Below are positions 7,415 to 48,346 of a DNA stretch of 64,000 nucleotides, one piece after another (position 1 is the stretch's first letter; the number at the start of each line of letters is the position of its first letter). The stretch covers positions 540,844-604,843 of the forward strand of contig OZ251446.1 in NCBI GenBank assembly GCA_965242495.1. The letters run 5' to 3'. Source of the DNA: Alphaproteobacteria bacterium (lineage in GTDB: Bacteria > Pseudomonadota > Alphaproteobacteria > MPNO01). Made by a program: the position numbers and the translations under genes. The notes under the pieces were generated by a model. It saw only the letters and a program-made list of their open reading frames with translations, was not told where the DNA came from and did not search any database.

Positions 7415-7737
7415 TCGTCCGCGTCCCGCGGCTCCGCCGCCCGGTCGCCGTCGCGGCGGTCATCGCCATCGCCATCGCCGCCGCCGTCGCCCGGATCGTC
7501 GTAATAGTCTTCGCTGCGCATCACCAGCCGGCGCATCTCCTTGGCCGCGACGACCAGGAAGACGCAGCACACGAAGCCGTAGACGCCGTGCGCGCCGAAC
7601 ATGCGCTCGACCTCGAACTCGCCATGCTTGTGGTAGAACGCATCGGCGGCGAACAGAACGGCGCAGACCGCGACCACCGCCCAATACACCTTGTCGACGC
7701 TGCCGGGCCGGTCGAGCCAGCCTTCCTTCGAGGTCAC
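7411..7737 (-). CDS. small two-helix membrane protein with a poly-acidic Asp/Gly C-terminal tail, embedded in the mrp-like operon
   Basis: Track ORF 7411..7905 in frame. The likely start is GTG at 7735-7737, preceded by GAGGAG. It has two predicted transmembrane helices (VYWAVVAVCAVLFAADAFY, GVYGFVCCVFLVVAAK) and the tail DDPGDGGGDGDGDDRRDGDRAAEPRDADE. Its TGA overlaps the ATG of the next gene. Confidence 0.5.
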   Translation of the reverse strand: MTSKEGWLDRPGSVDKVYWAVVAVCAVLFAADAFYHKHGEFEVERMFGAHGVYGFVCCVFLVVAAKEMRRLVMRSEDYYDDPGDGGGDGDGDDRRDGDRAAEPRDADE

Positions 7738-7747
7738 GCCCGTCTCC

Positions 7748-9253
7748 TCACGGTTGCGCGATAGGAAGAAGAAATTCGTATATTTCGTTGGCGAATATGA
7801 ATAATACGATGCAGGCGAGCGCGGTGAAGCAGAGCGGCGCCACGCATAGGAACGGCGCTTCCCGGATGCCGCCCCGGTCGCCGCGGCCCCGATCGCCGTG
7901 GTCATGGACGCGGTGGGCCTCCGGCTCGGCCGGCGGCGGCAGGAAGAAGCCGCGCGCCGGGATCGGCATGAGATAGGCGACGTTGAGCAGCGAACTCGCC
8001 ATCAGCACGCCGATCAGAACCAGCTGGCCGGCGTCGATCGCGCCCAGGGCGAGATACCATTTGCTCCACGCCCCGCCCAGGGGCGGCAGCCCGGTGACGC
8101 TGAGCGCGCCGATGAGGAAGGCGAGGAAGGTGAACGGCATGCGCCGGCCGAGCCCGGCCATGCCGCCGATCTCCGTCTTGTGCGCCGCCACCATGATCGC
8201 CCCGGCGCAGAAGAACAGGGTGATCTTGCCGAAGGCGTGCATCGCGATGTGCATGGCCCCGCCGACGATGCCGAAGGTCGTGGCCATGGCCCCGCCCATG
8301 ACGACGTAGCTCAGCTGGCTGACGGTCGAATAGGCGAGCCGCGCCTTGAGATTGTCCTTGGAGAGGGCGATCAGCGACGCGACGACGATGCTGGCCCCGG
8401 CGACGTACGTCAGCCATTCGCCGGCGCCGGTTTCGCGCAGATGGTCGGCGCCGAAGACGTAGAGGATCACCTTCAGCGCCGTGAAGACGCCCGCCTTCAC
8501 CACCGCCACCGCGTGCAGCAGCGCGCTGACCGGCGTCGGCGCCACCATCGCCGCGGGCAGCCAGCGGTGCAGCGGCATCAGCGCCGCCTTGCCGATCCCG
8601 TACATGTAGAGGAACAGCAGCACGCCCAGGAGCGGCCCCTCGACCTTGCCGTCGAGGATGCCGCCGGGGCGGAAGTCGAGCGTTCCCGCTGCCTGCCAGG
8701 TCCACAGGATCGCCACCAGCTGCAACCCGATCGAGGTCGACAGCAGGATGCCGAGATAGGTCCGCGCGCCCCGCATCGCCTCCGGCGACTGATGATGCGC
8801 GACCAGCGGGTAGGTCGAGATCGTCAGCACTTCATAGGCGACGAACAGCGTCATCATGTTCCCGGCCATCGCGACCGCGAGCGCGGCGGCGACGGCGACC
8901 GCGAAGCAGACGTAGAAGCGGGTCTGGTTCGCCTCGCGATGCCCGCGCATATAGCCGATCGAATAGAAGGAGGTGACGATCCACAGAAAGGACGCGACCA
9001 GGGCGAACAGCATGCCGAGCGGTTCGAGGACGAAGCGGAAGGCGAGGCCGGGGAGGAACTCGAACAAGACGAGGGCGGGCCGGCCGCCGTCGGCGACGAC
9101 GCCCAGGAGCGGCAGCGTCGCCAGGAAGGTGACCGCGGCGGCGGCGATGGTCGCCGCCTCGCGCAGGTTGGGCCGGCGGCGAAGGGCGGCGATCGCCGCG
9201 GCGCCGACCAAGGGCGCGGCCAGGGCCACCGCCATGAGGATGGGCGGGCTCAT
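7748..9253 (-). CDS. NuoL/MrpA-type antiporter-like subunit; it carries the NuoL-like domain only, without the MrpA C-terminal MrpB-like domains
   Basis: The true start is the ATG at 9251-9253 (MSPPILMAVALAAPLVGAAAIAAL…), overlapping the upstream stop (ATGA). The 140 codons upstream in track ORF 7748..9673 overlap the preceding gene. It carries the MrpA/NuoL-like signature …AMHIAMHAFGKITLFFCAGAI…. Confidence 0.8.
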   Translation of the reverse strand: MSPPILMAVALAAPLVGAAAIAALRRRPNLREAATIAAAAVTFLATLPLLGVVADGGRPALVLFEFLPGLAFRFVLEPLGMLFALVASFLWIVTSFYSIGYMRGHREANQTRFYVCFAVAVAAALAVAMAGNMMTLFVAYEVLTISTYPLVAHHQSPEAMRGARTYLGILLSTSIGLQLVAILWTWQAAGTLDFRPGGILDGKVEGPLLGVLLFLYMYGIGKAALMPLHRWLPAAMVAPTPVSALLHAVAVVKAGVFTALKVILYVFGADHLRETGAGEWLTYVAGASIVVASLIALSKDNLKARLAYSTVSQLSYVVMGGAMATTFGIVGGAMHIAMHAFGKITLFFCAGAIMVAAHKTEIGGMAGLGRRMPFTFLAFLIGALSVTGLPPLGGAWSKWYLALGAIDAGQLVLIGVLMASSLLNVAYLMPIPARGFFLPPPAEPEAHRVHDHGDRGRGDRGGIREAPFLCVAPLCFTALACIVLFIFANEIYEFLLPIAQP

Positions 9254-10731
9254 CCCGCCGATCCCAGCAGCGTCTCCGCGGCGCGCTGCGCCACGCCCAC
9301 GCTCACCGACGTCTCGATGCCGAAATAGACGTTGGCCGCGGTCAATATCCAGGCCGGGACGAGGAGGGCGGCCGGGGCCTCGGCGCGCCCCGCCGCGCCC
9401 GCCGGCGCCGGGCGGAACCAGGCCGCCTCGACGACGCGCCAGACGTAGATCACCGCCAGCAGCGAACTGGCGACGATCAGCGCCGCGACCGGCCACAGGC
9501 CGGAGTCGAGGGCGGCCAGGACGAGATGCCATTTGCTGACGAACCCGGCCGTCAGCGGCACGCCGATCAGGCTCAGCCCGCCGACGACGAACGCCGCCAT
9601 CGTCCACGGCATGCGCCGTCCCAACCCGGCGAAATCGTCCAGCTGGGCCGAGCGCAGCCGGTGAAACACGCATCCGACGGCCAGGAACAGGGCGCCCTTC
9701 ATCAGCGCGTGGTTGAACAAATGCAGCATCCCCGCGGCGAGGCCCGCCGCGGTGACGAAGCTCGCGCCCAGCACCATGTAGCCGATCTGCGCCACGCTCG
9801 AATAGGCGAGCAGGCGCTTCACGTCGTTCTGGAAGATGGCGACGGTCGAGGCGGCGAAGATCGCCGCGGTCGCGAGGGCCATCAGCGGGTATCTGGTCGG
9901 CAGCGTCTCGAACGAGAACTCAACCCCGAACACGGTGAAGAAGAAGCGCAGCAGGACGTAGATCGCGACCTTGGTGGCGGTGGCGGCGAGGAAGGCGCTG
10001 ACCGCCGAGGGCGCGTAGGCGTAGGCGTTGGGCAGCCACAGATGCAGCGGGAACAACGCGAGCTTGAGCGCCGCGCCGACGGTGAGAAACGCGAAGGCGA
10101 CGATCGCCGTCCGGTCGTAGCCGGCGTCGGGAAGCCGGTTCGCGATGTCGTGCATGTTGAGGCTGCCGGTCGCGTGGTAGAGCAGCCCCACCCCGATGAC
10201 GATGAAGGTGGCCCCGATCGTCCCCAGCACGAGGTATTGGTAGGCCGCGGTCAGCGCCCGCCGGTCGCGCCCCAGCCCGATCAGGACGTAGGACGACAGC
10301 GAGGAGATCTCGAGGAAGACGAACAGGTTGAACGCATCGCCGGTGATCGCGACGCCGAGCAGCCCGGCGAGGCACAGGAGGAAGGCGGCGTAGAACAGGT
10401 AGCGGCGTTCGCGGTCGAGTGCGAGCGGCATGTCGGCGCGGGCGTAGACGATGACGACGGCGGCGATGCCGGTGACGACCAGCAGCACGAAGGCGTTGAC
10501 CGCGTCGACGCGGTACTCGATCCCCCAGGGCGCCGCCCAGCCGCCGATCTCGTAGGAGATCACGCCGCGCTCCATGACCTCGCCGACCAGCAGGCAGGCG
10601 ATCGCGAAGGCGATCCAGACGGCGGCGAGGGCGAGGACGAACGCCCGGTCCCCGCCGCGCAGCAGAACGCAGGCCGGGGCCGCCAGCAGCGGCGCCACGA
10701 CCTGCAGGGCCGGAAGATGGGCGCCGATCAC
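9250..10731 (-). CDS. mrpD: Mrp antiporter subunit D (NuoN/M-like)
   Basis: 493 aa polytopic antiporter-like protein (…KRLLAYSSVAQIGYMVLG…HLFNHALMKGALFLAVG…). Its GTG start overlaps the mrpC stop (GTGA). Confidence 0.85.
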   Translation of the reverse strand: MIGAHLPALQVVAPLLAAPACVLLRGGDRAFVLALAAVWIAFAIACLLVGEVMERGVISYEIGGWAAPWGIEYRVDAVNAFVLLVVTGIAAVVIVYARADMPLALDRERRYLFYAAFLLCLAGLLGVAITGDAFNLFVFLEISSLSSYVLIGLGRDRRALTAAYQYLVLGTIGATFIVIGVGLLYHATGSLNMHDIANRLPDAGYDRTAIVAFAFLTVGAALKLALFPLHLWLPNAYAYAPSAVSAFLAATATKVAIYVLLRFFFTVFGVEFSFETLPTRYPLMALATAAIFAASTVAIFQNDVKRLLAYSSVAQIGYMVLGASFVTAAGLAAGMLHLFNHALMKGALFLAVGCVFHRLRSAQLDDFAGLGRRMPWTMAAFVVGGLSLIGVPLTAGFVSKWHLVLAALDSGLWPVAALIVASSLLAVIYVWRVVEAAWFRPAPAGAAGRAEAPAALLVPAWILTAANVYFGIETSVSVGVAQRAAETLLGSAG

Positions 10732-12367: not shown

Positions 12368-12650
12368 CGCTCCGCCCGTCCCGGCCGCCCGGCCCGATGC
12401 CGAGATCGCCGTATTTGAAGTATTTCAGCATGGCGATCGTGGCGACGAAGTTGATCAGCGCATAGACCAGCGCGATGTCGAGGAAGTCGGGCCGCCCGGC
12501 GAGAAACCCGATCACGCCGATGATCAGCACCGTCTTGGTGCCGAACATGTTGACCGCGAGGATGCGGTCGTACAGCGTCGGCCCGGCGAAGCCGCGGATC
12601 AGGGCGAGCCCCATGGTCAGCAGGATGGCCGCGGCGGCGGCGCTAAACAT
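12351..12650 (-). CDS. mrpF: Mrp antiporter subunit F
   Basis: 99 aa with the MrpF signature …LYDRILAVNMFGTKTVLIIGVIGFLAGRPDFLDIALVYALINFVATIAMLKYF…. It overlaps mrpG by 17 nt. Confidence 0.8.
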   Translation of the reverse strand: MFSAAAAAILLTMGLALIRGFAGPTLYDRILAVNMFGTKTVLIIGVIGFLAGRPDFLDIALVYALINFVATIAMLKYFKYGDLGIGPGGRDGRSGGGGD

Positions 12651-13143
12651 CGCCCGCCTCCTGGACCGGCTCCTCGCCCGCCATGTCGGTGACGCGGCGG
12701 TCCATCTCGCCGGATTGGAGCGCCCGCGCGCCGTCTCGCGTCAGCGCATGGACGAGGATCTCGCCGGGCTCCACATCGACCGAGATCGTCCCCGGCGTCA
12801 GCGTGATCGAGTTGGCGTAGACCGCCAAAGCGAGTTCGGAGCGCTGGCTCGCGCGCAGCCGCACCAGCGTCGGGCTGATCGGCAGGCTCGGCGCGAGAAC
12901 GCGGCGGGCCACGTCGACGTTCGCCTTGGCCACCTCCCAGGCGAGCCAGGGCCAGTAGACGAAGGCGCGGCGCGTCATGTGGATCGGATGGCCCTCGTGA
13001 TCGACCAGCTCCATCCGCAGGGCCACCGCCACCACCGCGGCGGAGGACGCCAGCCCGAAGATCAGCAGCAACGGCGTGTAATGGCCGGAGAGCAGCAGCC
13101 AGACGCCGAACGACACCAGTCCGAGAGAGATCGCGTGAACCAC
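12643..13143 (-). CDS. mrpE: Mrp antiporter subunit E (start uncertain)
   Basis: The C-terminal 165 codons of track ORF 12643..13404 match MrpE (…[41 protein letters not shown]…, …[15 protein letters not shown]…). The upstream 80 codons are Arg/Pro-rich filler. The nearest plausible start is GTG at 13141-13143. Confidence 0.6.
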
Positions 13144-13333
13144 GAGCGCCTTGCCGACGTTGTCTTCTACGGACGCGCTGCATCGGCGGCCGCGACGCCG
13201 GATCCTATTACGGCCCCGGCGCGGTTTCCAGCGAAAACTCGCTCCGGCCCACGCCGCCGGCGACGAAAAAAACTTGGCGAAAATCGCCGCCGGCGATGGT
13301 AGACTGGCGGTAAAAGTAGGGAGGAGTCTCAGC

Positions 13334-13876
13334 GTGAACGAGACCGAGGGTGGGTATGAAGGGGCCGCGTCGACGCCGATCCGCGGCACCGTCAAATGGT
13401 TCAACGCCGTGCGCGGCTACGGGTTCGTCTCGCCCGAGGACGGCTCGGCGGACGTGTTTCTGCATATGACCGTTCTGCGGCAGGCGGGTCACGAGAAACT
13501 GCCGACCGGGGCCACGGTCGAATGCGAGACGGCGCAGGGCGCGCGGGGCCGCCAGGTTTCGTCGATCCTCCGGCTGGACCTGTCGACCGCGGTCGAGGAG
13601 GCCCCGCATCAGGGGCCGCGCTTCGCCCCGCCGCCCGAGCCGCAGCCGACCGGCGAGTTCATCGAGGCGACGGTCAAGTGGTTCAACCCGCATAAGGGGT
13701 ACGGCTTCGTCTGCCCGGTGGAGTCCGAGACCGACATCTTCATCCACATGGTGACGCTGCGGCGGGCGGGCATCGCCGGGCTGATTACCGGTCAGCAGGT
13801 CATGGTCCGCACCGCCGAGAGCCCGAAGGGCCTGCAGGCGACCGACATCCGCACCACGAGCGCCCCGCTGGCGTGA
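13334..13876 (+). CDS. tandem cold-shock-domain protein (two CSDs)
   Basis: GTG at 13334 is preceded by GGGAGGAG. The two CSD cores are [27 protein letters not shown] and [27 protein letters not shown]. Confidence 0.85.
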
Positions 13877-13920
13877 AGGCGGAGGCCGGCGCGGGACCGC
13901 CGGCCTCCGCTCCGGCGCTC

Positions 13921-14871
13921 CTATTCGTCCCGCGCCAGCTCGACCGCATAGCTGTCGAGCGGCGGGATCCAGTCGATCAACCCCTGCGCCTGAAGGAAGG
14001 CGGCGAAGCGCCGGTAACGCGCCCGGTCGAGGGCCGCGGGTCGGAGCGCGAACCGCGGCAGGGTGTCGCGCCAGGCGCGCCGGTTGAGCTCGTTCTCCAG
14101 CTCCTTCCGGCCTTTGACGAACAACTCCCAACTCCCCTGCGGGTGGTTGATCAGATATTGCGTTCCGCGTTCGACCGCGAACACGAAGGCGGCGAGGGCC
14201 GGGTCGGCGAGCTGCGCCCGGTTGGCGATGAGGATCAGCTCGTCGAACGCGGGAACGCCCTCCTCCTCGACGTAGAAGGCGCGGCCCGGGCGATTCTCCA
14301 GGTCGAGCTGGTTGAGTTCGAAATTCCGGTAGGCGCCGATGACGGCATCGACCTTGCCCGAGATCAACGCCGGCGACAGCGAAAAGTTGACGTTCACCAG
14401 GGTGATGTCGGCGAGCGTCAGCCCGTGCCCGGCGAGCATCGCCCGGAGCAGCGCGTCCTCGAACCCGCCGACGGAGAAGCCCACCTTCCGCCCCTTCAGA
14501 TCGGCGATCGAGCGGATCGGGCCGTCTCTGAGCGTCACCAGCGAGTTCAGCGGCGTCGCCACCAACGTCCCGATGCGCGCCAGCGGCAGCCTGGCCGCGG
14601 CCTGAAGGTGCAGCTGCGGCTGATAGGAGATCGCGACGTCGGCCTTGCCGGCGGCGACCAGCTTGGGCGGGTCGTTGGGATCGGCGGGCGCTTTGAGCTC
14701 CACTTCCAGGCCCGCTTCCGAGAAGTAGCCGCGTTCGAGGGCGACGTAGAGCGGCGCATGGTCCGGGTTGACGAACCAGTCGAGCAGGACGGTCATCGTC
14801 CTCGCGGTCGCGTCCGAACTCGCGCCGACCAGGACGCCGAGCAGGATCGCGCCGAAAACACGTCGAAGCAT
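13921..14871 (-). CDS. ABC transporter periplasmic substrate-binding protein, NMT1/THI5 (ThiY-like, pyrimidine-precursor) family
   Basis: 316 aa with an N-terminal signal peptide (MLRRVFGAILLGVLVGASSDA). NMT1-like fold hallmarks: …VLLDWFVNPDHAPLYVALERGYFSEAGLEVEL…. It is the last gene of the riboswitch-controlled operon. Confidence 0.8.
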   Translation of the reverse strand: MLRRVFGAILLGVLVGASSDATARTMTVLLDWFVNPDHAPLYVALERGYFSEAGLEVELKAPADPNDPPKLVAAGKADVAISYQPQLHLQAAARLPLARIGTLVATPLNSLVTLRDGPIRSIADLKGRKVGFSVGGFEDALLRAMLAGHGLTLADITLVNVNFSLSPALISGKVDAVIGAYRNFELNQLDLENRPGRAFYVEEEGVPAFDELILIANRAQLADPALAAFVFAVERGTQYLINHPQGSWELFVKGRKELENELNRRAWRDTLPRFALRPAALDRARYRRFAAFLQAQGLIDWIPPLDSYAVELARDE

Positions 14872-14890
14872 TGGAGCCTCCTCCGTTCGA

Positions 14891-15670
14891 TTACGTTCCG
14901 TTCCGTTCTTCCTGCTCCCCTGCCGGCAGCGTTTCCGCCTGCCAGGGGAGAGCGCGCCGCAACGCCCCGTCGATGGCGAAGTAGAGCGCGACGCCGAACG
15001 CCGCCAACACGAACAGGGCGGCGAACATGAGGTCGATCTGAAGCCGCGCGTTGGCGTGCAGCATGAGATAGCCGAGGCCGGCGCTCGAACCGACCCATTC
15101 GCCGACGACGGCTCCGATCGGCGCTACCGCGGCGGCCACCCGGAGGCCGGACGCGAGCGCCGGCAGGGCCGCCGGGATGCGGATATGGCGCAGCGTCGTC
15201 CAGCGGCTGCCGTTCATCACCCGGGCGAGGTCGAGCCATCCCTGGTCGGTGCGCCGCAACCCGTCGAAGAAGGCGGAAGCGACGGGGAAGTAGATGATGA
15301 GCACCGCCATCGCGATCTTGGAGGCGAGGCCGTAGCCGAACCACAGCACCAGCAGCGGCGCCAGGGCGAACACCGGCATCGCCTGGCTGAACACCAGCGC
15401 CGGCAGCAGCCAGCGCCGCGCCGGCCGGAAATAGCTCATCGTCAGGGCGGTCCCGCAACCGATCAGCGCGCCGATCGCCAGCCCGGCGAGGATCTCGAAG
15501 AAGGTCGTCCCCGCATGGGAGGCGATGAGCCCGGCCCCGTCGGCCAGCGCCGCGGCGACGCGGGCCGGTCCGGGCAGGATGAAATGGGGCGCGCCCGTGA
15601 GCCACACCACCGCCTGCCATGCGGCGACCAGCCCGCAGAAGACGACGGCGAGGCGCCGGGCCGCGCTCAC
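14891..15670 (-). CDS. ABC transporter permease (ThiX/SsuC-like)
   Basis: The GTG start at 15668-15670 overlaps the ATPase stop (GTGA). It has six predicted transmembrane helices and the EAA-like loop …LIIYFPVASAFFDGLRRTDQGWLDLARVMNGSRW…. The rest of track ORF 14891..17116 is read-through. Confidence 0.8.
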   Translation of the reverse strand: MSAARRLAVVFCGLVAAWQAVVWLTGAPHFILPGPARVAAALADGAGLIASHAGTTFFEILAGLAIGALIGCGTALTMSYFRPARRWLLPALVFSQAMPVFALAPLLVLWFGYGLASKIAMAVLIIYFPVASAFFDGLRRTDQGWLDLARVMNGSRWTTLRHIRIPAALPALASGLRVAAAVAPIGAVVGEWVGSSAGLGYLMLHANARLQIDLMFAALFVLAAFGVALYFAIDGALRRALPWQAETLPAGEQEERNGT

Positions 15671-16464
15671 GGCGCGTCCCCGGCCCGGATCAGCCGGCGC
15701 AGCAGCTCCGCCTGGCGGGCGAGCAGGACCGGGTCGGCCGGGTCGCGCGGGGCGGGGCCCGGCGGCTCCAGCGCCCGGTCGAGACGGGCCGGCTTGCCCG
15801 ACATGACGTGGATGCGGTCGGCGAGCCGCAGCGCTTCCTGCGGATCGTGGGTCACCAGCAGCACGGTGCGGCCGACCAGCAGCTCGGCGGCGAGCGCCTG
15901 GAGGCGCGCCCGGGTGATGGCGTCGAGGGCCGAGAAGGGCTCGTCCATCAGCACCACCGGACGGTCCTCCAGCAAAGTCCGCGCCAAGGCCGCGCGCTGG
16001 CGCATGCCGCCCGAGCAGGCCGCCGGCCGGTCGTCCTGCCGGTCGTCCAGTCCGACCCGGGCCAGCAGCGCCCGCGCGCGCCGCCGCAAGGCCGGGTCGC
16101 CGCGCCGCGCGCCGCGCAGCCGGGCGCCCAGCGCCACGTTGTCGAGCAGGCTGAGCCAGGGCAGCAGCAGGTCCTGCTGCGCCATGTAGGCGGCGCGCCC
16201 GGCGAGGGGACGGCCGTCGCTGCACGATATCCGCGTGCCCGCCGACATCGGCGCCAACCCGGCGATCGCGCGCAGCAGGCTGGTCTTGCCGACGCCGCTG
16301 GGACCCAGCAGGCAGGTCCAGCCCCCGCCTTCGAGGGTGAATTCGAGATCGTCGAACAGAATTTCCGCCCCGAAGGAGAGCCGCGCCGCCTCGACGATCA
16401 CCGCCGGCGGCGGCGACGGCGGGTTCGGATCGGGGGCGGCGGGTCGTCGCTGGCTCAACTGCAC
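15667..16464 (-). CDS. ABC transporter ATP-binding protein (ThiZ-like)
   Basis: 265 aa with Walker A (GPSGVGKTS), the signature motif (CSGGMRQRAALAR) and Walker B (VVLMDEPFSALD). Confidence 0.85.
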   Translation of the reverse strand: MQLSQRRPAAPDPNPPSPPPAVIVEAARLSFGAEILFDDLEFTLEGGGWTCLLGPSGVGKTSLLRAIAGLAPMSAGTRISCSDGRPLAGRAAYMAQQDLLLPWLSLLDNVALGARLRGARRGDPALRRRARALLARVGLDDRQDDRPAACSGGMRQRAALARTLLEDRPVVLMDEPFSALDAITRARLQALAAELLVGRTVLLVTHDPQEALRLADRIHVMSGKPARLDRALEPPGPAPRDPADPVLLARQAELLRRLIRAGDAP

Positions 16465-16759: not shown

Positions 16760-17374
16760 ATGACCAAGCGGTTGCAGTCGAAATACAAGATCAACCGGCG
16801 CCTCGGCGTCAATCTCTGGGGGCGGCCGAAAAGCCCGATCAACATGCGGGACTACGGCCCCGGCGAGCACGGCCAGCGTCGGCGCAAGCCGTCCGACTTC
16901 GGCATCCAGCTGAAGGCCAAGCAGAAGCTCAAGGGCTATTACGGCAACGTCACCGAACGGCAGTTCCGCCGGACTTACGAAGAGGCCGTGCGGCGGCGCG
17001 GCGACACGATCGAGAACCTGATCGGGCTGCTCGAACAGCGGCTCGACAGCGTGGTCTACCGGCTCAAATTCGTCCCTACCGTGTTCGCGTCGCGCCAGTT
17101 CATCAATCACGGACACGTCAAGGTGAACGGCCGGCGGGTCACGATCCCGTCCTATCGGGTCCGCGAGGGCGACGTGATCGAGATACGCGACCGGTCGCGC
17201 GAGATCCCGGTCCTGCTCGAAGCGATCGAATCCCCGGAGCGCGACGTGCCCGACTATCTCGACGTCGACTACAACAAGATGCAGGGGAGCTTGCTCCGCA
17301 TTCCCAAATTCGCCGACGTCCCCTATCCGGTGCAGATGGAGCCCAACCTGGTGGTCGAGTATTACTCGCGTTAG
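16760..17374 (+). CDS. rpsD: 30S ribosomal protein S4
   Basis: 204 aa: [43 protein letters not shown]…, with the canonical S4 N-terminus and S4 RNA-binding domain. Confidence 0.95.
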
Positions 17375-17377
17375 CTC

Positions 17378-17773
17378 GCATTTCTCATACTGGCAGCGGT
17401 CTGCGCCGCGTTCGGGTGACGCGATCCGCCAGGAAAAGGCCTCGCCCGCACCCGGCTCGCCGCCGCAAGCTGCGCAAGATCGGCATCCGGATCGGGATCG
17501 GCGCGCGCCGGGTCAAGATCGCCATGGCCCCCATCCCTGGAAGGACGAGTTCACCATCGCCCGCCGCCGACTATTCACCGCCGCAGCGTGAAGCGGCTCT
17601 CACGCGCGCTTCTTTCCAACAACACAGAACGGCCCCAGGACGACCCAACCGCCAACCGGCGGGCGCCGACGCGCGCCCCGAAAACGCCGCAGCCACACAA
17701 CACAAACCCAATCGCCGCCGCTCACCCGCGCCAGGACGTCAGACCCTCAGCCCTCGACAGGTATGAGAAATGC
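17378..17773. repeat. 396-bp non-coding segment bounded by 13-bp perfect inverted repeats (GCATTTCTCATAC … GTATGAGAAATGC); a MITE-like element or a structured RNA with a long closing helix
   Basis: The arms at 17378-17390 and 17761-17773 are exact reverse complements. The arms are AT-rich in a ~70% GC background. There is no credible ORF inside; the 74-aa ORF 17588..17812 is Pro/Arg-rich filler. The segment starts 3 nt after the rpsD stop. Confidence 0.5.
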
Positions 17774-17786
17774 AAATTAGGGTTTA

Positions 17787-17805
17787 CCCCCCCCCCCCCC
17801 GGGGG
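17787..17805. repeat. homopolymeric C14 G5 tract, 60 nt upstream of the NHLP-leader gene start
   Basis: cccccccccccccc at 17787-17800 is followed by ggggg at 17801-17805. Tracts of this length are slipped-strand-mispairing prone; it could also be an assembly artifact. Confidence 0.6.
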
Positions 17806-17864
17806 CGTATGACGGTCAGGTCCGCCCGCGGGCGGAGTGATCCAAGGAACGGAAGGCGAGAGAG

Positions 17865-18488
17865 ATGACGGACGAGAAGACCGACGGCGGCCGCTGGACG
17901 GAGATGGAGGAGAGCTGGCGCAGGGACCCCGGGTTCCGCTCGCGGATGGAGGCGGACCCGAGGGCGGCGCTGGCCGAGCACGGAATCGAGATTCCGAGCG
18001 GCGTCGACGTGCGCCTCGCGGTGGACAGCGAGGACACGATCCACGTGGTGGCCCCGCCCGACCCCAACCGCGCGATGTCGGACGACGATCTCGGCGTCGT
18101 CGTCGGCGGGACCGGCAGGATGACGTACGAGGAGTGGTCCGCCAGACTGGACAACCTCATACAGCGCTCCCGGAGCGGCGACTGCTTCCTGACCACGGCG
18201 GTGGCGGGGCGCCGGGGCGAGGCGGACGACGGGCCGACGCTGTCGGCGCTGCGGGGCTTCCGCGACGGCTACATGTCGGAGACGGAGGAGCGCCGGGAGA
18301 TGGTCGCGGCCTACTACGAGACGGCGCCCGCGATCGTCGCGGCGATCCCGGCCGGTCACGCCGACTGGGACTGGATCGGCGAGCGGATCGACGCCGCCGT
18401 CGCGGCGATCAGCGACGGCGACGGCGACGCGGCCTTCGACGTCTACGCCGGCATGGTCAGGCGCCTGACCAGCCGCTGGCTCGGATAG
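17865..18488 (+). CDS. nitrile-hydratase-leader-peptide (NHLP) family RiPP-type precursor; an 82-aa leader ending in Gly-Gly fused to a 125-aa C-terminal domain of unknown function
   Basis: The N-terminus EESWRRDPGFRSRMEADPRAALAEHGIEIPSGVDVRLAVDSEDTIHVVAPPDPNRAMSDDDLGVVVGG matches the NHLP leader consensus (…W.DP.FR..L.ADPKAALAEHGIEIPEGVEVRVVENTADTLHLVLPPKP….LSDEELE.VAGG) almost position for position, including the terminal double-Gly cleavage motif. The downstream region (TGRMTYEEWSARLDNLIQRSRSGDCFLTTAVAG…) has a single Cys and looks like a folded domain rather than a Cys/Ser/Thr-rich core peptide. Confidence 0.7.
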   Translation: MTDEKTDGGRWTEMEESWRRDPGFRSRMEADPRAALAEHGIEIPSGVDVRLAVDSEDTIHVVAPPDPNRAMSDDDLGVVVGGTGRMTYEEWSARLDNLIQRSRSGDCFLTTAVAGRRGEADDGPTLSALRGFRDGYMSETEERREMVAAYYETAPAIVAAIPAGHADWDWIGERIDAAVAAISDGDGDAAFDVYAGMVRRLTSRWLG

Positions 18489-18725
18489 CCGCGGCGGACC
18501 GACGATAGCCGCGCCCGCGGCGCTGCTGCTGCGGGCCGGCGGGCGCAGGGCGGCGCGACGCCCCTTGAACCGAGGTCGAACAGGGGCGCGGTCCCGACTT
18601 CCTACGCCTCGCCAGCGCCCTCTTCGCCTTCCACCCGCGTGGCGGCGTGGAACAGCGGCCGCCGGACGTCATGCTGCTCGCGGCGCTCCGATGAGCCCGG
18701 ATACCGCTTGCCGCAGAGGAAGAAC

Positions 18726-18960
18726 ATGACGGAGGCCGAACCTCTATCTCGCTTCACCGAGCGGCCCGAGGTCTTCGGCGGCAAGCCGATCATTCGCGAC
18801 ATGCGGATCGCGGTGGAGCATGTCTTGCGGGATGTTGGCGGCGGACGACGGCGCGGAGGCCATTCTCGACGAGCGCCCGGAGCTGGGCCCCGGCGGATGT
18901 TCGGGCGCGCCTGCCGTTCGCCCATCGCGCGGGCGTCGCGGCTCCGACCCGGCGGGGTAG
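18726..18960 (+). pseudogene. frameshifted DUF433-family (antitoxin-like) gene remnant
   Basis: A strong RBS (AGAGGAAG) and ATG at 18726 give [37 protein letters not shown], a good DUF433 N-half (…dPev.gGkPvIrGtRipV..iL..l…). Recovering the C-half (…[19 protein letters not shown] / [14 protein letters not shown]…) requires two frame changes. No DUF5615/PIN partner is adjacent. Confidence 0.35.
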
Positions 18961-19427
18961 GGCAGCGGCAGGGAGGTCCGGTATTTCACCTGGTTGAGGG
19001 CGAAGCTCGACTTGATGCTGGCGACGCCGGGCGCGCGGGTCAGATGGTCCTTCAGGAAGGCTTCGTAAGCCTCGACGTCGGCGACTACGACCCGTAACAG
19101 ATAGTCGGCGTCGCCGGTCATCAGATAGCACTCCATCACCTCGGGTCGTTGCAGGATCGCCCGCTCGAACGTCTCCAGAGCGCGCTCCACCTGGCGTTCC
19201 AGCGTGACCTGGACGAATACGCTGACCGGCAGCCCGACCGCGGCGGGGTCCAGCAGCGATACGTGACTCTTGATCACGCCGGCGCGTTCGAGTTCGCGCA
19301 CGCGCCGCAGACAGGGAGACGGCGACAGGCCGACATGGCGCGCAAGATCGGCGTTGGAGACGCGCGCGTTCTCCTGGAGCAGGTCGAGAATCCGACAATC
19401 GATTCCATCAAGCGGCGTTTTCGGCAT
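18744..19427 (-). CDS. Lrp/AsnC-family transcriptional regulator (with a ~70-aa low-complexity C-terminal extension, or a lost stop)
   Basis: The N-terminal 155 aa are a canonical Lrp helix-turn-helix plus RAM domain ([56 protein letters not shown]…[15 protein letters not shown]). The ORF continues Pro/Ser/Arg-rich to 18744, overlapping the DUF433 remnant on the other strand. Confidence 0.8.
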
Positions 19428-46966: not shown

Positions 46967-48346
46967 CTACCGTCCGGCGACCGTCATCCCGTCCACGCGG
47001 ACCGTTGGCGCATCGACGCCGTAGCGGAACTCGAGGTCCTCGGCCGGCGTCAGATTGGCGAACATGTCCTTGAGGTTGCCGGCTACCGTGAGTTCGCTCA
47101 CCGGATAGGCGATTTCGCCGTTCTCGATCCAGAAACCGGTCGCGCCGCGGCTGTAATCGCCGGTGACGACACTGACGCCCATGCCGATCAGCTCGACGAC
47201 GTAGAACCCGCTGCGGATGTCGCCGATGAGGTCTTCGCGGGTGATACCGCCCGCCTGCATGAAGAGGTTGGTCGTCGCCGGCGACGGCGGCGAGGCGGTT
47301 CCCCGCGCCGCGTTTCCAGTGGTCTCGAGGCCGAGCTGGCGGGCCGAGCCGAGATCCAGCACCCAGCTCGCGAGCCGGCCGTTCTCGACTAGGGCGCGGC
47401 GCGCGTTGGCGATCCCCTCGGCGTCGAACGGCTTGGAGCGCAAGCCGCGCCGACGATGAGGGTCGTCCACGATCGCGACCGCCTCGCCGAAGACCCGCTC
47501 GCCCATCGATTCCTTGAGAAAGGAAGTGCCGCGCGAGATCGGGACGCCGTTGACGGCTCTGGCGAAATGGCCGACCAGTCCGCCCGAGACGCGCCGGTCG
47601 TAGACCACCGGGACCTGTGCGGTCTTGATCTTGCGCGCGCCCAACCGCCTGGCCGCTCGCTCCCCGGCGCGCCGCCCGATCTCCTCCGGCGGCGGCAGGT
47701 CGGCGCCATGGACCGCGGTGGCGTAGTCGTAGTCCCGCTCCATGTCCGCGCCGTCGCCGGCGAGCACCGACACGGCGAGGCTATGGGAGGACGAGTCGTA
47801 GCTCCGCGCGAAGCCGTTGGTCGCGGCGAGGGCCGCCACCGACCGGCTCCAGCCCGCCTCGGCGCCTTCGGAATTGGTGATCTTGGGAACCGCCCGCGCG
47901 GCGTCCTCGGCGCGGGCGGCTTTGTCGATCAGCGAATCGGCCGAGGGCTCCTGCGGGTCGCAGATGTCAAGCGCCGGCGCGACGCCGGCCAGCTGTCCCG
48001 GATCGGCTAGCCCGGCATAGGGATCGTCCGGAGCAGCGCGCGCCATGGCGACGCAACGTTCGGCGAGGGCGGCGAAGGTGTCCGCCGCGAGATCCGTCGA
48101 CGACACGATCGCCTGCTTCCTGCCGACGAAGGCCCGCAGGCCGAGATCGCGGCTCTCCGCCCGCTCGAGCTTCTCGGATCTGCCGAGCCGCTGCGCCACT
48201 TCGATCGACGCCGACTCGAAGAACACGGCGTCGGCCGAGTCCGCTCCCGCCCGCTTGGCGCAGGCGAGAAGCCGGTCGAGGAGATCAAGAGGAGCGGGGG
48301 CGCGGGTCATGTCCGTCCCGGAACGCTGGATGCCGGGTCGGGTCAT
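46967..48346 (-). CDS. pmbA: PmbA/TldE-family metalloprotease
   Basis: A TldD/PmbA-family protein (…GRSEKLERAESRDLGLRAFVGRKQAIVSSTDL…). The alternative ATG at 48310 is equally possible. Confidence 0.8.
   Translation of the reverse strand: MTRPGIQRSGTDMTRAPAPLDLLDRLLACAKRAGADSADAVFFESASIEVAQRLGRSEKLERAESRDLGLRAFVGRKQAIVSSTDLAADTFAALAERCVAMARAAPDDPYAGLADPGQLAGVAPALDICDPQEPSADSLIDKAARAEDAARAVPKITNSEGAEAGWSRSVAALAATNGFARSYDSSSHSLAVSVLAGDGADMERDYDYATAVHGADLPPPEEIGRRAGERAARRLGARKIKTAQVPVVYDRRVSGGLVGHFARAVNGVPISRGTSFLKESMGERVFGEAVAIVDDPHRRRGLRSKPFDAEGIANARRALVENGRLASWVLDLGSARQLGLETTGNAARGTASPPSPATTNLFMQAGGITREDLIGDIRSGFYVVELIGMGVSVVTGDYSRGATGFWIENGEIAYPVSELTVAGNLKDMFANLTPAEDLEFRYGVDAPTVRVDGMTVAGR

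Follow-up and report, generated by a model that had tools for sequence, protein, structure and literature searches.

What is a gene that begins like the precursor of a peptide that ribosomes synthesize and that is then modified post-translationally (RiPP), and ends in what looks like a folded protein domain, doing among housekeeping genes? The question is raised by an open reading frame (ORF) of 207 amino acids at 17865-18488 (+) in a 64,000-nucleotide stretch of contig OZ251446.1 (positions 540,844 to 604,843) of an alphaproteobacterium (assembly GCA_965242495.1); this whole stretch is referred to here as the window. A sequence-only reading of the window had described the product as an orphan precursor with a nitrile hydratase leader peptide (NHLP). 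Our answer, to which we give a probability of roughly 0.55, is that the gene is a functional and mobile satellite precursor of a distant NHLP system of the thiazole/oxazole-modified microcin (TOMM) type, that its leader would be cut after Gly82, and that the resulting product, which carries a CFI-box domain, would probably be exported.

The ORF is clearly a genuine coding gene, since its GC content at third codon positions (GC3) is 0.97, the joint-highest value among the ORFs called in the window, and its protein has 20 full-length database homologs (the identical P0001 and 19 others at 50-91% identity). It is real and reads as had been described, the translation matching the earlier protein exactly. 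From family scores and Gly-Gly invariance, residues 1-82 (17865-18110, +) were assigned to an NHLP-type leader, whose last codons, Gly81-Gly82, lie at 18105-18110. Residues 83-106 (18111-18182, +) form a linker that is hypervariable in the family alignment, disordered by predicted local distance difference test (pLDDT), and in the position of a RiPP core peptide. Residues 107-207, starting CFLTTAV, make up a CFI-box-CTERM domain according to family model NF041770 and a fold model; with the stop codon they occupy 18183-18488 (+). Promoter region, 5' untranslated region (UTR), coding sequence (CDS) and 3' tail together form a gene cassette of 764 bp (17760-18523, +), delimited by its homology borders with the related loci L006 and L007.

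The leader passes the Pfam model NHase_alpha (PF02979; residues 17-78, 29.2 bits against a gathering score of 27.2), and is 57% identical over 69 residues to the leader of the first precursor in locus L026, a genuine cluster precursor with the same Gly-Gly end. It also matches TIGR03793 (leader_NHLP) significantly, with 39.4 bits for the whole protein and 42.4 for the leader alone (E = 4e-10 to 4.5e-11), although the curated cutoff of 50.9 bits is not reached; the alignment runs from residue 19 or 20 to 82 (profile positions 14 or 15 to 77 of 77) and ends at G82. Genuine in-cluster precursors of the lineage score 36.8, 45.4 and 50.1 bits, likewise under the cutoff, and the shortfall is thus a property of the lineage. 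For one homolog inside a cluster, P0018, both scores lie above their cutoffs (TIGR03793, 54.7 bits; NF041770, 44.3 bits). The leader is therefore of the NHLP type, as had been claimed, but a divergent rather than a near-textbook example. The whole protein contains one Cys (C107), so that the CxxCSC metal-binding motif of the nitrile hydratase alpha subunit is lacking, and the 125 residues after the Gly-Gly do contain a single Cys, as had been noted. The terminal double Gly likewise stands up: Gly81 and Gly82 are invariant in 20 of 20 aligned family members, align with the Gly-Gly of the cluster precursors, and are preceded by an acidic/hydrophobic pattern (the stretch reads L-S-D-D-D-L-G-V-V-V-G-G). 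In a full-length AlphaFold model the leader consists of helices within residues 10-37 and a beta-hairpin at 50-62, with pLDDT around 80 over residues 11-40.

Such a leader calls for partners, and the window does not provide them. A family scan of 30 of the larger ORFs in the 64 kb found no YcaO, SagB, LanM or other maturase and no peptidase-bearing exporter; the sole ATP-binding cassette (ABC) exporter is MsbA, which is devoid of a peptidase domain. The earlier statement that no maturase or exporter is nearby thus holds for the whole window. The gene is not encoded beside a cyclodehydratase, whereas its homologs P0018 and P0020 are. In three loci (L002, L003 and L004) the fusion of NHLP leader and CFI-box (CFI-NHLP) is the first gene of a RiPP cluster; P0018 and P0020 are such copies, and are followed by 3-5 ordinary NHLP precursors with cores rich in Ser, Thr, Cys, Gly and Ala. 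The cluster encodes a fused leader-binding/YcaO cyclodehydratase (both TIGR03882 and TIGR03604 pass), a SagB dehydrogenase that passes its model, a LanM-like protein matching only positions 90-701 of the 932-position LanM model, and a 233-residue protein that gave no family match.

Other copies are solitary among unrelated genes, as are P0002 and P0003 (the 91%-identical orthologs), P0010 and P0014, and a YcaO search found 84%-identical orthologs on the same contigs as orphan copies. On a 3.67-Mb chromosome the cluster is at about 0.63 Mb and orphans are at about 1.68 and 2.47 Mb; on a 6.1-Mb chromosome the cluster is at about 3.78 Mb and an orphan at about 5.14 Mb. The clusters of these two sister chromosomes hold ordinary precursors only. 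P0003 and P0010 are dispersed copies on one chromosome. For the window gene itself, two TOMM cyclodehydratases of 787 and 791 residues (P0405 and P0406), found as members of the 90%-identity cluster of the sister-genome YcaO, lie on a 3,944,238-bp contig, and P0001 likewise lies on a 3,944,238-bp contig. The two proteins are full length; they share 98% identity with each other and 84% with the cluster YcaO, and these maturases appear to be on the window gene's own chromosome. At the edge of locus L027, in the 6.1-Mb genome, there is an NHLP secretion protein of the HlyD type (TIGR03794; 191.8 bits against a cutoff of 156.2), cut off by the end of the locus.

The gene is thus an orphan locally, but apparently not genome-wide, given P0405 and P0406 and the sister genomes in which orphan and cluster are 1-2 Mb apart. 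Its position is an ordinary one, since dispersed NHLP and N11P precursors far from their maturases are an established pattern (PMC2887384), and scattered NHLP and Nif11 precursors are served in trans by one modification system (PMC2887384, PMC10783134). One of the two earlier proposals, that of a stranded precursor whose processing system is elsewhere, is supported in its second half by P0405 and P0406, the sister clusters and the TIGR03794 protein. It fails in its first half: the gene is not a decaying copy, because it retains its own conserved promoter motif, common to the cluster operons, and its C-terminal domain is under purifying selection.

The promoter motif provides the link between satellite and cluster. 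In the window it reads AAATTAGGGTT (17774-17784, +), which is the sole match in the 64 kb; the other loci read GAAATTAGGGTT, whose first G corresponds to a C at 17773 in the window. When the 150 bp upstream of nine genes were aligned (5 orphan CFI-NHLP genes, 2 in-cluster CFI-NHLP genes and the first precursor of 2 clusters), GAAATTAGGGTT was invariant apart from this first base. Each locus of about 20 kb contains the 12-mer once; it lies on the coding strand and precedes every CFI-NHLP gene by 60-100 bp. It is also present upstream of the first cluster precursor in L026 and L027, and L027 has a further site before a pair of genes for an NHLP precursor and a radical S-adenosylmethionine (SAM) enzyme. 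We infer that the motif is a promoter/operator element of an NHLP regulon. Between the motif and a -10-like TATGAC (17808-17813), a tract of 14 C can be read from the sequence (17787-17800, +). A run of about 11-14 C follows the motif in six of the nine aligned promoters (the window, L001, L005, L006, L007 and L027), with differing lengths, and a -10-like TAxxxT hexamer is discernible downstream in most of the nine. By analogy, such a tract can act as a phase-variation switch; alternatively, the length differences could be homopolymer errors in long-read assemblies of metagenome-derived genomes. Metagenome contigs yielded no exact match to the motif plus poly-C, and a protein scan of them returned relatives of the C-terminal domain only.

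Several observations on the clusters stand beside these results. In L027, the 126-residue NHLP precursor and a radical-SAM epimerase of the PoyD type, whose 315.7 bits fall short of the cutoff of 325, are encoded at 17307-19331 (-), with GAAATTAGGGTT upstream and the YcaO cluster beside them, and the lineage may combine proteusin-type epimerization with azole formation. In the genome of L004 and in those of the members of the 90%-identity YcaO cluster, the cyclodehydratase of 786 residues is present in two near-identical copies each; in L004 these copies (7415-9775, -, and 12557-14917, +) lie on either side of the precursor array and face opposite ways, an arrangement that points to a duplicated or invertible cluster. 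The ordinary precursor cores (L002 10767-12806, L026 7518-9271) bear a weak likeness to the thiocillin family of RiPPs, at about 20 bits on a model whose cutoff is 25, a hint that the real products of the cluster are made by thiopeptide-like Ser/Thr/Cys chemistry.

Taken together, the gene would be a satellite in the NHLP-precursor regulon of a thiazole/oxazole-type RiPP system, apparently encoded elsewhere on the same chromosome. This system would comprise the fused leader-binding/YcaO cyclodehydratase, the SagB dehydrogenase and the LanM-like dehydratase, to which relatives add a PoyD-like epimerase and an NHLP HlyD/ABC exporter. The gene would be expressed together with the distant cluster through the shared promoter/operator. 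NHLP leaders are rigid, protein-like modules that contact enzymes protein-to-protein (PMC12537861), and the structured leader might dock in this manner on the leader-binding maturase and/or on a Gly-Gly-specific peptidase-exporter. Cleavage after Gly82 would then free, and probably export, a product of about 13.7 kDa, made up of a flexible 24-residue tail and the CFI-box. Since the CFI-box follows a Sec signal peptide and a passenger region in long relatives, the NHLP leader may be an alternative export route for the domain. After export, the domain might dock to a component of the envelope or of a pilus, or its invariant first Cys might be a site of chemistry. The other earlier proposal, a leader used as a secretion or processing tag for a folded domain, is plausible.

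A number of points weigh against this account. Cleavage, export and modification are all deduced steps, as is the placement of P0405 and P0406 in the same genome as the window gene. The leader lies below the curated TIGR03793 cutoff, and a sigma-70 consensus scan called no site at the proposed promoter. A folded helical domain of 100 residues is an unusual cargo for this class of exporter, and no C39-peptidase ABC transporter (TIGR03796/03797) was found in any relative locus examined, only its HlyD partner. The genuine cores of these clusters are all rich in Cys, Ser and Thr, but what follows the Gly-Gly here is not, and may therefore not be a cyclodehydratase substrate at all. Finally, small CFI-box proteins of Clostridia have no signal peptide, which argues against a strictly extracytoplasmic role of the domain.

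The linker bears on whether the protein is cleaved. Across the 20-member alignment it varies in length (24-45 residues) and in sequence, and in the full-length AlphaFold model residues 63-106 are disordered (pLDDT below 50). Its ratio of non-synonymous to synonymous substitution (dN/dS) is about 1 or higher between subfamilies; between L002 and L004 it differs by 8.5 non-synonymous and 0.5 synonymous changes. An invariant Gly-Gly followed by freely varying residues is the signature of a retained cleavage site, and would be unneeded if the leader served for docking alone. This is a difficulty for an alternative that we consider unlikely, in which the protein is an uncleaved intracellular accessory and is never secreted: the NHLP module would dock on the maturase, and the CFI-box would be a decoy or flux regulator, a scaffold or chaperone, or an immunity factor. 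Such an accessory would explain why the region after the Gly-Gly is without the Ser/Thr/Cys/Gly-rich composition of every genuine core and why its C-terminal part is stably folded in the model. It would suit a gene that is the first of the operon, before the real precursors, in L002 and L004, and it agrees with the engagement of enzymes by rigid NHLP modules (PMC12537861) and with CFI-box proteins that appear to be cytoplasmic. Besides the variable linker, however, a dedicated NHLP secretion protein occurs in the lineage, the closest relatives of the domain stand behind Sec signal peptides, and several dispersed copies per genome (P0003, P0010) resemble an expansion of precursor paralogs more than a single-copy regulator.

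The C-terminal part had been taken as a folded-looking domain. The fold is borne out: this part is helical in the full-length model, and a model of residues 101-207, built from a more diverse alignment, has a pLDDT of 93.4 and a predicted TM-score (pTM) of 0.84, and shows five helices, the first of which begins right at Cys107. The domain is not anonymous, and belongs to a curated and very large family. NF041770 (CFI_box_CTERM) is passed with 44.4 bits by the whole protein and with 45.9 by the C-terminal part (cutoff 40), over residues 107-161, in an alignment that covers profile positions 1-51 of 69 only. With a profile of the domain and a threshold of E <= 1e-3, the search found 8,180 cluster representatives, of which 3,668 remain at E <= 1e-10. 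Proteins of other architectures also pass NF041770 (P0209, 46.3 bits; P0145, 53.7 bits). The signature of the domain is C-F-L-T-T-A ... G-x-x-D-D ... L-R-x-F-R-D ... Y-Y-x-x-A-P, and Cys107, Thr110, Thr111 and many further residues of the domain are invariant in the alignment of the NHLP-fused family. The window domain is at the extreme C-terminus, 101 residues from the start of CFLTTAV to the end of the protein. The best 150 hits of the profile almost always have it there too, in proteins of 90-1,178 residues. In 261 homologs the median distance between the first Cys and the C-terminus is 109 residues; a Gly comes before this Cys in 60%, and usually a Gly-rich linker lies upstream. A self-cleaving junction of the Hedgehog or intein kind at this Gly-Cys was rejected, the fold being all-helical and the residue before the Cys not being conserved in the NHLP-fused family.

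Nearly all CFI-box homologs inspected are without an NHLP leader, so that the same leader is not a regular companion of the domain elsewhere; the Gly-Gly, in turn, sits at the leader end, just as in real precursors, and not in a structural position. A third, more distant fusion of an NHLP-like leader with a CFI-box is P0111. The biggest group near the window domain consists of proteins of about 530-560 residues with Sec-type signal peptides (a crude filter finds signal-peptide-like N-termini in at least 76 of 133 long CFI-box proteins). Their genes sit inside type IVb pilus operons, with a PilS prepilin, a shufflon-type PilV and a T2SSE ATPase, which adjoin an S24 repressor and an HTH_17 gene; these surroundings have the look of an integrative element. 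Further carriers are small Cys-rich proteins of Clostridia, whose gene context (LeuRS, a response regulator) gave no functional clue, and a 1,178-residue protein with faint PHROG matches only. For the domain itself, Pfam and PHROGs contain no matching model, and neither a BFVD search with the domain nor a comparison of its profile with the PDB sequences gave significant hits; fold and sequence searches against solved and viral structures returned generic helical bundles only. A search of a full-text library found no paper that mentions CFI-box-CTERM, and no function is attached to the family.

Two pilus loci deserve mention in their own right. In L008 (8001-9587) and L009 (8001-9680), the genes for CFI-box proteins that bear signal peptides and have no Pfam domain keep a fixed place: they stand two genes upstream of the T2SSE ATPase and are followed by PilS and shufflon-type PilV genes. 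These proteins appear to be an undescribed component of type IVb pilus systems.

Could the CFI motif itself be the core? The leader would then recruit cyclodehydratase, dehydrogenase and dehydratase to Cys107-Phe-Leu-Thr110-Thr111, in a scheme that overlaps with the satellite account. The invariant Cys107, Thr110 and Thr111 are the residue types on which YcaO/SagB and LanM-type enzymes act. The motif also starts at a Cys, at the junction of flexible and folded parts, where the linker of 24-45 residues puts it at a core-like distance from the Gly-Gly. Yet thousands of CFI-box proteins without an NHLP leader conserve C-[FY]-[LI]-T-[TS]-A, and in the places where their genes were examined, the pilus operons and the Clostridial locus, no RiPP enzymes are near them. 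The conservation of the motif is thus explained by the domain, not by the pathway, and we regard modification of it as quite improbable. Equally doubtful is the bolder idea that the CFI-box is a widespread, autonomous module with chemistry or covalent attachment at its first Cys (and the Thr-Thr). Its repeated capture by NHLP leaders would then mean that a folded domain is processed and delivered by maturation and export machinery of the RiPP type. With the domain exchanged between these proteins and those of conjugative type IVb pilus operons, the product could be secreted and could bind to, or disturb, the envelope or pilus machinery of mobile elements.

How did leader and domain come together, and how did the gene come to its present site? 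Compared with L007, from the 3.67-Mb genome, the cassette is 93% identical over 770 aligned bp, and compared with L006 it is 90% identical over 17774-18499. Homology to these two loci, which encode the 91% orthologs, is limited to 17760-18523, that is, about 105 bp upstream, the CDS and a tail of about 35 bp; the flanks are unrelated and the neighbouring genes are different in all three genomes. By comparison, a syntenic operon for an NMT1-type ABC system, presumed to be orthologous, is only 69-76% identical between the same pair of genomes. The best reading of the gene is that of a horizontally mobile cassette.

A second border lies inside the gene. DNA similarity to the second CFI-NHLP subfamily begins at 18179-18183, at or within 4 bases of the Cys107 codon. 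Upstream of it, the leader DNA of the window matches the first precursor of the clusters at 71-74%, and the leader protein is 55-64% identical to ordinary precursors versus 41-48% to leaders of the other CFI-NHLP subfamily, a placement that the leader tree also gives. Downstream of it, the C-terminal domains of the two subfamilies are 73-75% identical, and that of the window is closer still, at 78-81%, to the pilus-operon proteins, which branch inside the NHLP-fused clade. In the same gene pairs, synonymous divergence is 2-3 times lower in the C-terminal domain than in the leader. On these comparisons, leader and CFI-box domain have different evolutionary histories, and their fusion is judged to have arisen or been re-assorted at least twice (three times if P0111 is counted). 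Values of dN/dS, which are rough because of few sites and extreme GC3, are 0.27-0.64 for the C-terminal domain and 0.33-1.5 for the leader; judged from them, the C-terminal domain is under purifying selection.

These data bear on a further alternative, namely that the gene is a selfish or neutral chimera, produced by recombination between a precursor gene and a pilus-operon CFI-box and spreading without contributing to any RiPP. The sharp homology borders at non-syntenic sites are the behaviour of a mobile unit; the cassette adjoins a decayed DUF433 gene, and the homolog in L001 has an IS481-family transposase directly upstream. The low synonymous divergence of the C-terminal domain, and its being nearest to pilus-operon genes, suggest recent recombination. 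Neutral spread, however, would not be expected to leave intact frames, an invariant Gly-Gly and many invariant C-terminal residues in a family of at least 20 protein clusters that reaches down to 50% identity, nor purifying selection on the C-terminal domain, nor a retained promoter motif common to the cluster operons. An architecture built on at least two occasions, with leaders of different lineages, speaks for selection on the combination. The cassette itself contains no transposase, integrase or terminal repeats. Neutral spread is thus very improbable, and a functional, mobile satellite precursor is the reading that we retain.

The remaining features of the cassette and its surroundings are as follows. 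The 5' UTR contains a GC-rich palindrome, CCGCCCGCGGGCGG (17822-17835, +), that is kept in L006 and L007, and after it a purine-rich ribosome-binding region can be read at about 17845-17857 (+). The fold of the 5' UTR is unexceptional (z = -0.47), and the flanks gave no significant Rfam match. The 3' tail (18489-18523, +), conserved between the window and L007, contains the GC-rich palindrome GCCGCGCCCGCGGC, which may form a hairpin at the end of the transcript; it has no T-run, and a terminator scan made no call there. Around the spacer between the rpsD stop codon and the motif there are perfect 13-nucleotide inverted repeats, GCATTTCTCATAC at 17378-17390 and GTATGAGAAATGC at 17761-17773. The full arms are 26 nucleotides long, 77% complementary and 344 nucleotides apart, the right arm being partly shared with L007, and might belong to a small inserted element or mark the cassette border.

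The DUF433 (antitoxin-like) gene that comes directly after the cassette (about 18726-18935, +) is broken by two frameshifts; its reconstructed 69-residue sequence scores 56.3 bits on PF04255. It overlaps a C-terminal extension of about 70 residues of the Lrp/AsnC ORF (18744-19427, -); of the 227 residues of this ORF, the Pfam domains reach only to about residue 146. The NMT1-type ABC operon and a gene with a double cold-shock domain (13400-16464), which lie a short way upstream of rpsD and the cassette, correspond to L026 375-4595, where they are beside the RiPP cluster of the 3.67-Mb genome; the genomes are rearranged around this neighbourhood. All family hits among the scanned ORFs of the window are housekeeping genes, as had been said of the neighbours: GlnE, GlmU, GlmS, Mrp antiporter, Lrp, SufBD/SufS, DEAD helicase, a GyrB/ParE-type topoisomerase subunit, PurD, XseA, LpxK, PmbA, UbiD and formate dehydrogenase, with rpsD, AceE, Tig and ClpP recognized from their translations. 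With 336 bits, the PmbA metalloprotease gene (46970-48346, -) does not reach the cutoff of the PmbA model (438). In E. coli, the leader of microcin B17 is processed by TldD/PmbA; as a candidate leader protease here PmbA was set aside, being a common housekeeping gene 29 kb away whose presence is not evidence.

What is new here is the recurrent fusion of an NHLP leader to a folded CFI-box domain, the shared motif that links this fusion to a YcaO/SagB/LanM-like cluster, and the evidence of domain exchange with type IVb pilus-operon proteins. In the usual view, the cores to which RiPP leaders steer enzymes and exporters are short and unstructured. Should the leader be cleaved and the domain be exported or modified, folded protein cargo would come within the reach of RiPP machinery. 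This would also give a first experimental handle on CFI-box-CTERM, a domain with thousands of members and no known function that also ends secreted proteins of type IVb pilus operons in integrative elements. For genome mining, a shared upstream DNA motif can tie satellite precursors among housekeeping genes to distant clusters.

Among known systems, the double-glycine class II bacteriocins (logo comparison in PMC2887384) share the Gly-Gly leader end after an acidic/hydrophobic pattern, and by analogy export-coupled cleavage would be expected; here the predicted cargo is instead a helical domain with a fold, and the DNA examined showed no C39 transporter. The cyanobacterial N11P/prochlorosin-type precursors (PMC2887384, PMC10783134) are likewise scattered, with conserved leaders, hypervariable cores and one promiscuous modification system, but their cores are short peptides, and neither a shared poly-C promoter motif nor a folded C-terminal domain is described for them in these two papers. 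The NHLP/proteusin precursors (TIGR03793; Haft, Basu & Mitchell 2010, PMC2887384) are similar in their long leader, which is related to nitrile hydratase alpha and devoid of the metal-binding Cys motif, in homology that stops at the Gly-Gly before a hypervariable region, and in the several paralogs per genome, some far from TOMM or LanM enzymes, in a lineage with the HlyD component (TIGR03794) of the NHLP export system; here, however, 125 residues follow the Gly-Gly and close with a folded domain of 100 residues, in place of a short Cys/Ser/Thr-rich core. With the CFI-box-CTERM proteins (NF041770) the gene product shares a passing model score, the Cys-Phe-Leu/Ile start, the extreme C-terminal position and the signature. 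In those proteins the domain typically comes after a Sec signal peptide or another N-terminal domain and a Gly-rich linker, whereas here it comes after a RiPP leader.

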